Shown here: positions 50,716 through 54,633 of the stretch, piece by piece
Position numbering within the stretch: position 1 is the stretch's first letter
Layout: each line of letters opens with the position of its first letter
Source: Bacteriovoracaceae bacterium
GTDB taxonomy: Bacteria; Bdellovibrionota; Bacteriovoracia; Bacteriovoracales; Bacteriovoracaceae
Length of the DNA stretch: 64,000 bases
Direction: 5' to 3'
Assembly: GCA_048270185.1 (NCBI GenBank)
Contig: JBLWTJ010000001.1
Location: 96,001 to 160,000, forward strand
The notes under the pieces: model-generated
Databases searched by the model: none
Seen by the model: only the letters and a program-made list of their open reading frames with translations
What the model was told of the DNA's origin: nothing
Made by a program: the position numbers and the translations under genes

Positions 50716-51273
50716 ATGAGACTCACTTCGAAAGGACGCTACGCAGTTAGAGCAATGCTTGACCTAACTACTAATAGCAACGGTAACCCTGTTAGACTAC
50801 AGGAAATTTCAGAAAGACAAAACATTTCACTACACTACCTTGAGCAACTTTTCAGAAAGCTTAGAAATGGGCAAGCTGTTAAGTCGGTAAGAGGACCAGG
50901 TGGTGGTTATGTTCTTGCTCGTTCAATGGAAGAAATCACAATTAAAGATGTTCTTGAGTGTGTTGGTGAAAATATCAACCCAGCTAAAGATATTCTTGGA
51001 ACAGAAGCAGAGCAAGCTAGCACTACTGAGTTCCACCTGTCTAAGAACTACTTTCAAAACCTTGGTTTCATTATGAATGAATACCTTTCAACTACTTCTC
51101 TTGGTGACCTAATCAGAAAGTCTGGTGAAGTTCAATCTGAAGTAAGAAGTAATGAAGTAGCTAATGAGCAAGCTCAGCCAACTGCTGAAGCAGCATCAAC
51201 TACTTCAACTGAAAGTGCATTCAGTGAATACGCATCAGGGATTAGATCAGGTTTAGGTGAAATTAATCAATAA
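50716..51273 (+). CDS. Rrf2-family regulator (IscR/CymR-like, lacks the Cys triad)
   Basis: MRLTSKGRYAV, YLEQLF, SVRGPGGGY; only one Cys. Confidence 0.88.
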   Translation: MRLTSKGRYAVRAMLDLTTNSNGNPVRLQEISERQNISLHYLEQLFRKLRNGQAVKSVRGPGGGYVLARSMEEITIKDVLECVGENINPAKDILGTEAEQASTTEFHLSKNYFQNLGFIMNEYLSTTSLGDLIRKSGEVQSEVRSNEVANEQAQPTAEAASTTSTESAFSEYASGIRSGLGEINQ

Positions 51274-52411
51274 TTTTCTTTACTTAGATTATAATGCAAC
51301 GGCCCCCTTAGTAAAACCAGTTCAAGACTGGCTTTGCGAGGGGGCCGCATTCTTTGGGAATCCAGCTTCAACTCATCAATTGGGTAAGAAGTCTAAGTCC
51401 CTTATCAATCAAACAATCAAAAATATTCAAAAAATTTTCAGTGCTCAGGCATACGAAGTTTTCTTTCATTCAGGTGCAACTGAGGCCATTAACAGTGTTG
51501 TTAAAGGTTTCTGTTTTAATGCCCTTAAGTCTAAGAAAGAATTTCATGTCTTGTGCTTTGATGCTGACCACTCAAGTGTTGTTAACCAGAGAGAGCATGT
51601 TGAGCTCTTAGGTGGCACTTTTCACGTGCTAAAGACTATTAATGGTGACTTTGATACTGAAGAAGTTATTAGAAAAGTTAAGGCCATCTCTGGTGAAGTC
51701 TTAATTAACTTCACTTACGTTAATAATGAGAATGGCGTTGTGTGGGATCTGGGTGAAGTTTTAAAAATTAAGCAAGCAACAGCTGCAACTATTCATGTAG
51801 ATTGTGTTCAGGTTGTCGGAAAAGTTAAGGACTGGAATCAGTTAGTTTTAGGCCTTGATTACTATACTTTCTCTGGCCATAAATTTGGTGCATTAAAAGG
51901 AGTCGGGTTCACTCTTGTCTCGAAAGAAGCAAGTTGGACACCGCTTATTCGTGGTGGTGGTCAGCAAAAGGCCATGAGATCTGGAACTGAGAATGCATTT
52001 GGTGTTCATACCGTTTCTTTGGCCCTTGATTATAATCTTGAAAATTTTAACTTTGAAAAAATCTCTCAAATTAAAAATGAATTAGAAAGTTGGATAATGA
52101 ATAATTTTGGCAACAAAGTTATTTTAATTGGTGAAAAAGCTAAGCTTAGAAATGCTACAACAATCTTTTTAAGCCTTGGTGACGTTGATATCAATACGGT
52201 TATGATGGCCCTTGATATGGCCGGAATTGGTGGCTCAAGTGGTTCTGCATGTGCATCAGGTATTATCAAGCCTTCTCGTGTAGCACTTGCATATGGCCTT
52301 GATGATAAGTCTTCTACTAATGTACTAAGGCTTTCACTGTCTCCGTATATTGAAGACTCTCAATCTATTATCGACAAATTATCTCCTGTTCTTACAAAAT
52401 ATCTTTCATAA
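51257..52411 (+). CDS. Cysteine desulfurase (IscS/NifS family)
   Basis: YLDYNAT, SGATEA, NNENG, FSGHKFG, RSGTEN, SSGSAC. Confidence 0.92.
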   Translation: MKLINNFLYLDYNATAPLVKPVQDWLCEGAAFFGNPASTHQLGKKSKSLINQTIKNIQKIFSAQAYEVFFHSGATEAINSVVKGFCFNALKSKKEFHVLCFDADHSSVVNQREHVELLGGTFHVLKTINGDFDTEEVIRKVKAISGEVLINFTYVNNENGVVWDLGEVLKIKQATAATIHVDCVQVVGKVKDWNQLVLGLDYYTFSGHKFGALKGVGFTLVSKEASWTPLIRGGGQQKAMRSGTENAFGVHTVSLALDYNLENFNFEKISQIKNELESWIMNNFGNKVILIGEKAKLRNATTIFLSLGDVDINTVMMALDMAGIGGSSGSACASGIIKPSRVALAYGLDDKSSTNVLRLSLSPYIEDSQSIIDKLSPVLTKYLS

Positions 52412-52557
52412 TAATCTGCGTATGATGCGATGCGTGATGCACTTTGGTCATACTTAAAAAAACCTAACGAGTTCATTTTGGCCTCAGGGTGCAGATGGAC
52501 ACTATGTCTAACTATCTGTAAATATTAGTTTTAGGTGATTAGTGGGTACGTTCATTT

Positions 52558-52574
52558 TTGGCACGGCCCTTGCT
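52558..52574 (+). promoter_or_regulatory. Sigma54 (-24/-12) promoter
   Basis: TTGGCACG-GCCC-TTGCT, an exact match to TGGCACG-N4-TTGCW. Confidence 0.8.
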
Positions 52575-52584
52575 TATATATAAG

Positions 52585-52729
52585 TATCAATGGTTAGACG
52601 GCCTTGGTTCTTTGAAAAGAGTCCCATCACACTTCTACTGACCATGCTGAAAAACAAGAATTTGTTTTTTTCTCTTGCTCAAAATCCTACCTTTTCTTTC
52701 TAAGTTTAATCCAAGGCCCAATTTTTTTT
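52585..52729 (+). ncRNA. Candidate sigma54-dependent small RNA (contains a 37-codon ORF, 52590-52703)
   Basis: Follows the sigma54 motif; GGCCTTGG (52600) pairs with CCAAGGCC (52711), then a T-run. Confidence 0.45.
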
Positions 52730-53297
52730 ATAAGTATTTTAAGATATTTTGATAGTCATTTTCTCGTGCGATATCAATGGCCTTTTTATGATCCTTATTG
52801 AGAATCATTTTGTTTGCACTTTGTTCACTTAAAATTTTTATGCACTCTATATTGCCATTTTTAGCGCTGTAGTGAAGGGCAGTGTTGCCATGTGTATCTT
52901 GTCGGTTAATATCGGCACCGGCCTTTAGAAGAGCGATGATTACTTTGGGATTACAGTTATAGCTTTGATCCATCAGGAAAGTATATTGTCTTTTGTTTAT
53001 AATAAGATCTGGGTCAGCACCATTTTCTAGTGTGTTTATAATCTCTTCTTCATTCTCATCGTTAAAAGCCTCGAGCATTTTATTATTGAGATTACTTGTC
53101 TTCTTTGTTTGAAATGTTGACTTTGTTGATGCTAATGCAGACGCACTTAAAGTGATGGCATCAGTTTTTTTCATAATAAATTCTTTATTGATAGTGATAG
53201 GTGTATTAAGAGGCCTATGATTGCTATCACTTGCTTTTGATAAATACCAAACGAATGTAAAGATAGGAATGATGAGTAAAAGGGAGCGTTTAATCAT
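52728..53297 (-). CDS. Exported ankyrin-repeat protein
   Basis: N-terminal hydrophobic segment; GADPD, GADIN..GNTALHYSA ankyrin repeats. Confidence 0.9.
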   Translation of the reverse strand: MIKRSLLLIIPIFTFVWYLSKASDSNHRPLNTPITINKEFIMKKTDAITLSASALASTKSTFQTKKTSNLNNKMLEAFNDENEEEIINTLENGADPDLIINKRQYTFLMDQSYNCNPKVIIALLKAGADINRQDTHGNTALHYSAKNGNIECIKILSEQSANKMILNKDHKKAIDIARENDYQNILKYL

Positions 53298-54633
53298 TTT
53301 TTATTTCTTCAATCGTTTTAAATGCTGGGTAGAAGTATTTCGGTTCTTTATGACTTATTGGCTTGCTTCCGCCAAATTCTTCGATGATATAATTTACCAT
53401 AAGATCTTGAGACATTTTGGCATTATTGCGATCGACTTTAAAGACATGATGAAAGAATCCAAAGTATACAGGACCTGACTGAGTTAAAAGTTTTCCTGCT
53501 AGTGACCTGGTATTCATAAGAGTACCTGTCTTTCCAAGGATGGCCCCTAGATTCTTTTTTAAATTAAGTCTTTTCTTTAAAGTTCCATAATCAAGGCCCG
53601 CAACAGGAAGCGCTTCTTGAAGATTGTGTCCGCCATCAACTAAAGTATCGTTTAGTTTCTGGTATAGGCGTACCATGACGGCACAAGTTGAGTAATTGTC
53701 GACTCTTTCATTGTTTCTCTTGTCGTCTAAGCCTGAGCCTGTATAGAAAGTGGAAGTCATCTCTAACTCATTATAGCCTTTGCGTGTTTGTACGTAGTCA
53801 CGACCTAGGTTTTCATCTGTAAAGTTTTGTAGATACCAAGAAGAGAAAGCTTCTTCTCCATAGCTTGTGTAGAGAATATCGGCCATCCAATTATGTGAAA
53901 TTGAATTTTGATACTTTAGGTATTCAAGAATTGGAGTTGTCGTCACTTCAAAGAAGCGTAGGTCTTTTTTGTTCTGTAATGGGTTCTCTTCACTATAAAT
54001 TACATTGTTAACTTGCATCTCATAGTTTGAAATTCTGTTTGGCATTGAAAGCTCGCTTAGAACTTCTTGTGGAGTGTTCTTAAGTAGTGCTTTCATGCTT
54101 TTTACAAGATCGTCATGCTCTTTGAAGTTGAAATACTTTAGTAGCTCTTTTTTTGAGTTTTCAAGATTGGCCCTTCTTTCACTCATGCTCATGTACGGTT
54201 TTAAGGCATTGGCAAATACTGGAACTTGCTTATCAAAACTTAGTGTCTTAATTTTTTTTATTCCAAGTGAGTTAAGTCCTGCGATTAGGTAGAGGAGTTT
54301 CTCTTCACTGTAGAGTGGATCATTTGATCCTTTGATATGTAGATTTTCTCCATCGTAGCTTAGGATTGTTTTAAATTGGTACTCAACCCCTAGTGTGTCG
54401 ATGGCCATAAGTGAAGTAATCGGTTTAGTTGTTGAAGCAAGACGTGACTTTAAGTGTGCTGTTTCACCATAGATCTGGTCATTATAAAGGTAGCAGAAAC
54501 CATGCTCATTTGAGTTTAAGTTAAATTCTTCTGAGAGTGTTTGCCATTTAAGTTTTATATTTTCGTGAATATCGCCTAGTGCAGAGCTGGCAAGAAATAG
54601 CGTCGTAAATAGGATCGTGATCTTTGTAAACAT
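53290..54633 (-). CDS. dacB: DacB-like D-Ala-D-Ala endo/carboxypeptidase (peptidase S13)
   Basis: Signal peptide; ASTTK (SxxK), SHN (SxN), GSGL, KTGTL. Confidence 0.9.
   Translation of the reverse strand: MFTKITILFTTLFLASSALGDIHENIKLKWQTLSEEFNLNSNEHGFCYLYNDQIYGETAHLKSRLASTTKPITSLMAIDTLGVEYQFKTILSYDGENLHIKGSNDPLYSEEKLLYLIAGLNSLGIKKIKTLSFDKQVPVFANALKPYMSMSERRANLENSKKELLKYFNFKEHDDLVKSMKALLKNTPQEVLSELSMPNRISNYEMQVNNVIYSEENPLQNKKDLRFFEVTTTPILEYLKYQNSISHNWMADILYTSYGEEAFSSWYLQNFTDENLGRDYVQTRKGYNELEMTSTFYTGSGLDDKRNNERVDNYSTCAVMVRLYQKLNDTLVDGGHNLQEALPVAGLDYGTLKKRLNLKKNLGAILGKTGTLMNTRSLAGKLLTQSGPVYFGFFHHVFKVDRNNAKMSQDLMVNYIIEEFGGSKPISHKEPKYFYPAFKTIEEIKND

Follow-up and report, generated by a model that had tools for sequence, protein, structure and literature searches.

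A Predicted Family of Pseudoknotted Non-Coding RNAs with a Sigma-54-Type Promoter in Predatory Bacteriovoracaceae

A Predicted RNA Gene between an IscS-Like Gene and an Ankyrin Gene

The DNA analyzed in this study, a 64,000-nt stretch of a Bacteriovoracaceae genome referred to as the window, very likely harbors a genuine non-coding RNA gene. As judged by sequence comparison, its product appears to belong to a family of structured non-coding RNAs that occurs in predatory Bacteriovoracaceae, the kind of RNA being known and the fold and the family being new. New RNA motifs whose function is unknown are no rarity; the present one combines a well-bounded gene, a covariation-supported fold and a long-range pseudoknot that is unusual in crossing a 20-bp closing stem, and it may bear on the alternation of these predators between hunting and growth. 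In the literature searched (excluding supplements, most subscription journals and motif catalogues), no regulatory RNA was described for the Bacteriovoracaceae. Likewise, the available portions of PMC13443453, PMC3526173 and PMC11187230 do not describe this RNA or other small RNAs of the family.

The element is located in a 316-nt gap between an IscS-like gene and a convergent ankyrin gene (Table 1). For this site, a previous sequence-only reading had listed a sigma-54 promoter, two alternative pairings, a T run, a 37-codon open reading frame and a predicted transcript end head-to-head with the ankyrin gene stop, and all of these sequence features were found where they had been placed. The promoter motif TTGGCACG-GCCC-TTGCT is present, the pairing of GGCCTTGG (52600-607) with CCAAGGCC (52711-718) was confirmed as part of the closing stem P2, and the T run shares its last positions with the ankyrin stop codon on the minus strand (52728-52730).

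Table 1. Positions of the predicted RNA gene, its structural parts and its neighbors in the window
Feature	Position	Strand	Basis or remark
IscS/NifS-like cysteine desulfurase gene	51257-52411	+	Follows Rrf2/IscR-like gene; not part of the RNA
Two genus-conserved upstream blocks	52424-52442, 52469-52487	.	Candidate activator sites
Sigma-54 -24/-12 promoter motif	52558-52574	+	Exact motif; kept in 62/67 homologues; rpoN present
Predicted non-coding RNA, ~145 nt	52584-52729	+	R2 match, family conservation, G-U excess
P1 5' strand, leader, ATGGTTAG	52590-52597	+	Pairs with 52638-52645; family consensus GGUUGG
P2 closing stem, 5' strand	52600-52619	+	Outer part 52600-52608 firm, inner part irregular
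Degenerate UCCYACCU copy, single-stranded, 5' bubble strand	52622-52629	+	
P1 3' strand, CTGACCAT	52638-52645	+	Family consensus RCCAACC; crosses P2, giving a pseudoknot
P3 apical hairpin, 9 bp	52649-52670	+	GAAU tetraloop at 52658-52661; covariation
UCCUACCU motif, 3' bubble strand	52685-52692	+	
P2 closing stem, 3' strand	52691-52718	+	Outer part 52710-52718 firm; covariation, pair probability
U run after closing stem, likely 3' end	52722-52729	+	8 T; family U-rich end
Ankyrin-repeat gene, convergent	52728-53297	-	Follows peptidase S13 gene; no constant partner
Peptidase S13 (DacB-like) gene	53290-54633		Precedes ankyrin gene

Based on a refined covariance model (R2), the element was recovered at positions 52582-52728 with a score of 89.8 bits, the second-best match within the window reaching 12.9 bits. 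The RNA presumably starts about 12 nt past the GC of the -12 element and ends in the U run; across the family, the mean U fraction over 18 nt around the RNA end is 0.47. In the predicted fold of the window sequence, the eight outer pairs of P2 showed pair probabilities of 0.98-1.0. The window sequence alone was not more stable than its shuffled versions (folding energy, z = -0.17), and a terminator scan at the locus revealed no classical short hairpin terminator. The Rfam search proposed along with the sequence-only reading was run as well: Rfam 15 contained no family matching the window, riboswitch and ribozyme families giving no match at E<=10, and none matching ten homologue loci at E<=0.5. 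The Rfam lines for narK and SpR20 (E 3.7 and 6.3) align essentially on the promoter.

Distribution of the RNA Family

BLAST searches detected the element in seven genomes of the same genus, always between the same genes, and the matches in G004, G008, G009 and G011 run from the promoter to the T run. Diverged copies in other genera were located downstream of iscS orthologues. A covariance model (R1), constructed from 14 copies without the promoter and without the P1 pseudoknot helix, matched 63 of 150 Bacteriovoracaceae genomes in 28 of 69 genera; within the genus, 10 of 13 genomes were matched, including all nine near-complete ones. The refined model R2 matched 71 of the 150 family genomes, 66 of them at full length with E<0.001. 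Five weak family matches (E 0.004-0.04) were left out of the counts, and two weak members without GAAU or a good P1 (G028, G089) were kept. Overall, the RNA was present in about 44% of the family genomes sampled, and 25 further copies were obtained from 24 of 45 metagenome loci.

Apart from G064 and the metagenome locus L437, each of which has a tandem pair, copies of the RNA occur singly. The tandem duplicates of G064 (C114:5311-5784, L084) each possess their own promoter motif and have diverged loops, and one of the L437 copies has lost GAAU.

No strong match was obtained outside the family, two weak ones (E ~0.04) being found among 127 genomes from other families of the phylum. A pattern scan returned at least 120 loci, of which 80 were tested; the model accepted 11 of them and rejected 69 non-family loci. 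The accepted loci are labelled Halobacteriovorax, Bacteriovorax, (Halo)bacteriovoracaceae or Bdellovibrionales, which places the RNA family among predatory bacteria. Phage records yielded no match, nor did the five tested of 11 viral pattern loci. Furthermore, whole genera were without a match among the genomes searched, although rpoN is encoded in 143 of the 150 family genomes. The genome of the window encodes rpoN as well.

Covariation, Predicted Pseudoknot and Conserved Motifs

In an alignment of 67 rows, 88.2% of the cells were paired and double changes occurred at 25 of 29 pairs, counts that lean to P2 and P3 because the alignment was fitted to these helices. This pairing was reached by none of 500 shuffles, a result that overstates certainty because kin are not independent, and slid controls remained at 26-60%. 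For P1, which is absent from the model, 96.9% of the cells were paired (slid controls 13-60%), with double changes at five of seven pairs; these occurred in the separate genera g83, g12, g76 and g14 as well as in the window's own genome. P3 showed double changes at all nine pairs. The covariance analysis in relatives suggested earlier thus identified three helices with compensatory changes, namely the closing stem P2 of about 20 bp, the GAAU hairpin P3 of about 9 bp, and P1. The element stands above chance because homologues across 28 genera keep both the promoter and the helices by compensatory change.

Regarding the two pairings that had been read as alternatives, both helices covary and involve different bases. 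As P1 crosses P2 without sharing a base with it, the two would constitute a pseudoknot, or else P1 represents an earlier folding state or switch; prefix folding predicts that P1 and P3 form first and P2 last. The median anatomy, as deduced from 65 of the 67 copies, comprises P1 (7 bp), a linker of 10 nt, the 5' strand of P2 (~20 bp), 17 unpaired nt, the P1 partner, 6 nt, P3 (9 bp), 26 unpaired nt and the P2 partner, with bubble strands of ~30 and ~26 nt.

Of the 67 copies, 66 retain the GAAU loop, which is closed by each of the four Watson-Crick pairs in one copy or another and lies 13-17 nt from P1 in 60 of 63 copies. Moreover, sequence is conserved inside the helices, and few unpaired bases are invariant except for GAAU and a C-rich motif. 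Within the unpaired bubble strands, which contain 3-5% G, the motif TCCYAYC was counted 77 times compared with 5.6 times in shuffles and was observed in 52 of 67 RNAs. Its 5' copy reads UCCYACCU in ~85% of the RNAs, and its 3' copy is a looser AYCU core with a variable prefix.

Promoter and Strand

The window contains a single exact match to TGGCAC-N5-TTGC. Allowing one mismatch, three occurrences were observed with 2.3 expected, so that the window alone proves little about the promoter. Genome-wide, the exact motif was found 11 times compared with 3.3 expected, and the spacer of 5 was the commonest among spacers of 2-9. Applying a strict pattern, the -24/-12 motif is located at the expected distance before 62 of the 67 RNA copies; of the other five, inspected by eye, four have a near-consensus motif in place and one has a consensus motif further upstream. 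The promoter represents independent support for the gene because the covariance models were built without it. Helix cells of the family alignment contain 98 G-U compared with 40 A-C combinations, an excess favoring the plus strand.

The promoter sequence and its conservation indicate that the RNA is probably sigma-54-dependent in transcription. The core of the sequence-only reading, a sigma-54-type promoter preceding a structured small RNA, was corroborated by the presence of rpoN, the 62 conserved promoters and the covarying helices. The two genus-conserved upstream blocks would be candidate sites for a sigma-54 activator. A motif of the TGC-repeat type was observed upstream of 25 of 66 copies, compared with 5.4 in mononucleotide shuffles. 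Directly after the -12 element, a palindrome, CTTATATATAAG, is located at 52572-52584; within the genus, several further promoters of the sigma-54 type have it as well, and it is possibly just an AT-rich melting region.

Neighboring Genes

An IscS/NifS-like gene is the commonest upstream neighbor, located within 700 nt in 26 of 67 loci. The gene downstream encodes an ankyrin protein in 16 loci, a hypothetical protein in 13, MarC in four and other products in 34; it is convergent in 49 and co-directional in 15 of the 67 loci. A convergent gene often ends within 50 nt of the RNA, and the 3' end of its mRNA therefore probably overlaps the RNA. Such an arrangement would fit a cis-acting element serving either as antisense RNA or shared terminator of the ankyrin/DacB operon or as 5' leader of the downstream gene, and DacB-ankyrin pairs are invasion-timed in Bdellovibrio according to the available text of PMC4686830. 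However, the downstream gene varies while the RNA fold stays, and a role for the neighbor leaves P1, P3 and the C-rich motif unexplained. The antisense option of the sequence-only reading, directed at the ankyrin/DacB operon, fails because ankyrin is downstream in just 16 of 67 loci, a co-directional gene being found in 15. A cis function of any of these kinds is accordingly regarded as very improbable. The order of the S13 and ankyrin genes (52728-54633) resembles that of the endopeptidase/self-protection pair Bd3459/Bd3460 of Bdellovibrio as far as the available description goes, gene order being the only feature compared.

The other option raised earlier, a small-protein gene of 37 codons, relies on a frame (52590-52703) that is open in the window's genome. 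Among the 67 copies, however, a leader ATG is present in 16, the deduced peptides range from 5 to 61 residues in unrelated frames, and single-base indels cause frameshifts already in close relatives. Since the frame is not conserved, and in view of the lack of a Pfam match and of a Shine-Dalgarno sequence, this option had to be given up as having a negligible probability.

Comparison with Known RNAs

No match to the 6S family (RF00013) reaching the gathering threshold was obtained in the window or in homologue loci. The genuine 6S RNA of the window's genome (G000) is located on contig C5, and R2 gave no hit at E<=5 in five 6S RNAs of the family with filters switched off. In architecture, the RNA resembles 6S and Ms1 RNA: it is predicted as a rod of ~150-185 nt in which a G-poor central bubble separates the closing stem from the apical hairpin, and its gene stands alone. 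Furthermore, the 6S 3' bubble starts with CCCACCU in the capitalised Rfam consensus, and CCACCU occurs in all five family 6S RNAs analyzed and in the bubble strand of this RNA. In contrast to 6S RNA, the apical arm measures about 9 bp (P3 median) instead of the long Rfam-consensus arm with its -35-like region, the 5' leader pseudoknots into the bubble, the promoter is of the sigma-54 type, and the geometry differs. According to the accessible part of PMC8876501, 6S variants that are truncated or circularly permuted and have short arms retain polymerase binding, and mutating the region of the CCACCU word in E. coli 6S RNA has little effect on binding.

A repeated single-stranded motif within a standalone RNA is also characteristic of the protein-titrating RNAs of the CsrB/RsmY/RsmZ and CrcZ types. 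CrcZ is sigma-54-driven. Unlike in CsrB and RsmZ, GGA is depleted in the present family (79 compared with 128 in shuffles) and just one to three motif copies occur; a separate CsrB-like RNA is encoded in the same genome, as is CsrA.

Pxr of Myxococcus xanthus is likewise an apparently sigma-54-transcribed, lineage-restricted regulatory RNA of a bacterium without Hfq (PMC5568312). It differs in being, in the available text of PMC5568312, a triple stem-loop of ~108 nt downstream of the activator gene nla19, for which no closing stem or pseudoknot is described there; it also has no Rfam match here. Standalone non-coding RNAs of a predator are moreover represented by merRNA and APsRNA1-7 of Bdellovibrio bacteriovorus. 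As described in the accessible portion of PMC3627812, merRNA is unlike the present RNA in comprising 445 nt with a c-di-GMP riboswitch, and the RNAs of this set have no homologues beyond Bdellovibrio, three being FliA-driven and none being reported there as sigma-54-driven; the comparison with the present RNA covers these descriptions.

SRP RNA, RNase P RNA and tmRNA were rejected as identities, each being located elsewhere in the genome and giving no match here. Y RNA was rejected as well, no Ro60/Rsr (TROVE) gene (PF05731) being found in the 95.9%-complete genome.

Proposed Function

Based on fold and conservation, a protein-binding decoy or scaffold is tentatively preferred as the mechanism of the RNA. 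Sigma-54 would transcribe an RNA of ~145-185 nt that an enhancer-binding activator would switch on at some stage. P1 would form first in the course of transcription and P2 last, both coexisting in the final fold. A protein-recognition surface may then arise from helix ends of fixed sequence, from GAAU placed at a set distance from P1 and from one or two UCCYACCU/AYCU motifs. Recognition of shape and sequence by a protein would be consistent with helices of fixed sequence, with an invariant, constantly spaced loop and with a short core that recurs while its flanks vary. Like a pairing seed, the motif is also pyrimidine-rich, G-free, anti-Shine-Dalgarno-like and, at one position, either C or U, which speaks against protein binding.

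Base pairing is accordingly the main rival, in the form of an Hfq-independent trans-acting RNA, and is considered possible though less probable than protein binding. The scaffold would keep the UCCYACCU and CA-rich strands open for AGGURGGA in ribosome-binding sites, or it would act as a sponge for another RNA, e.g., the GU-rich small RNA with a sigma-54-type promoter that these genomes also encode (see below). Hfq was not found in the 95.9%-complete genome of the window, and the G-poor bubble strands with their motif resembling an anti-Shine-Dalgarno sequence fit such a role. The target scan covered both bubble strands plus the leader, set against positions -60 to +30 of 3092 crudely called genes of one genome, and a few candidates were compared across genomes. 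The site of the top ribosome-binding-site target was kept in 3 of the 29 orthologue loci listed, of 30, and the density of AGGTRGGAT-ATG was alike in genomes with and without the RNA (1.44 and 1.36 per Mb, p = 0.70). Of five orthologues, one kept a 13-bp match to a terminator near the gene at G000:C1:1588239-1588709.

For the GU-rich RNA, cognate pairing across 35 genomes averaged -15.2 kcal/mol, slightly better than the controls, shuffled loops giving -12.8 and non-cognate pairs -14.4, and some copies offer 9-12 Watson-Crick pairs to its seed. Its AGGAG variant was found in 20 of 36 genomes with the present RNA and in none of 25 without it, an association that is confounded by kinship. Moreover, the Y position of the motif ignores the GU-rich RNA variant, with 24 C and 24 U where pairing needs U. 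The CsrB-like RNA was rejected as a partner, forming weak duplexes only. The complement of the motif occurs at position ~2150-2170 of 23S rRNA, presumably the L1 stalk, where a match is found for 47 of 66 RNAs; against shuffled rRNA, the best site scored 51 compared with a null mean of 43.8, at least 10 of 100 nulls being higher, and this non-significant candidate was rejected too. That four candidate pairing partners failed or were weak was counted in favor of protein binding. Protein binding is also favored by the AYCU core with its variable prefix, which a fixed pairing target would be unlikely to tolerate.

A ligand-binding or catalytic RNA, i.e., an aptamer storing a small molecule or a self-cleaving core, would be compatible with the compact, sequence-conserved pseudoknot, the invariant loop and the standalone location, and a precedent has been proposed for the c-di-GMP-binding merRNA of Bdellovibrio (available text of PMC3627812). 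The Rfam searches described above, covering the window at E<=10 and 10 homologue loci at E<=0.5, revealed no riboswitch or ribozyme, and GAAU and the motif are accompanied by few further invariant unpaired bases. Such a function is therefore judged improbable.

With respect to the preferred protein-binding function, RNA polymerase is the best candidate that can be named as partner, by analogy to 6S and Ms1 RNA. The specific proposal that the RNA is a sigma-54-made, pseudoknotted 6S analogue, and hence a second, structurally new RNA polymerase decoy, is unlikely as it stands. If true, the 5' leader of such an analogue would fold back onto its bubble as a built-in switch, the sigma-54 programme would silence housekeeping transcription at a life-cycle transition via a polymerase decoy, and the family would have at least three regulatory RNAs under sigma-54, this decoy among them.

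Further Sigma-54-Type RNAs and Leaders in the Genome

Two further sigma-54-type RNAs were observed in the window's genome. The GU-rich RNA (G000:C1:774851, minus strand, L259) comprises ~90 nt with a GU-repeat start, an AGGAU hairpin loop and a terminator; homologues were collected as L354-L403, and promoter plus GU repeat were present in 98 of 150 family genomes, the reversed control pattern never being found. The CsrB-like RNA (G000:C2:557933, minus strand, L258; homologues L298 and L349-L352) carries several GGA hairpin loops and is conserved in the genus. Together with the RNA of the window, they suggest an RNA layer under RpoN in a genome in which Hfq was not found. Downstream of both L259 and L258, one and the same palindromic repeat of ~65 nt is present, suggesting a REP-like dispersed repeat.

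A sigma-54-type promoter also precedes the CA-rich leader of an HNH-domain gene (G000:C1:378108, plus strand, L260; homologues L343-L345). This leader is complementary to the GU-rich RNA at its CA repeat and over ~15 nt just before the start codon. Genome-wide, 30 intergenic sigma-54-like promoters were detected in G000, many of them located before short leaders of genes for secreted-like proteins. One precedes a gene labelled DksA/TraR-like from its sequence (C1:670389-670892), the leader of which contains GGA motifs. Furthermore, the genome encodes a coiled-coil protein of 1765 residues with a predicted N-terminal membrane segment (G000:C1:565639-570936, minus strand, L257); according to prediction, a hairpin formed by the leader of this gene masks the ribosome-binding site.
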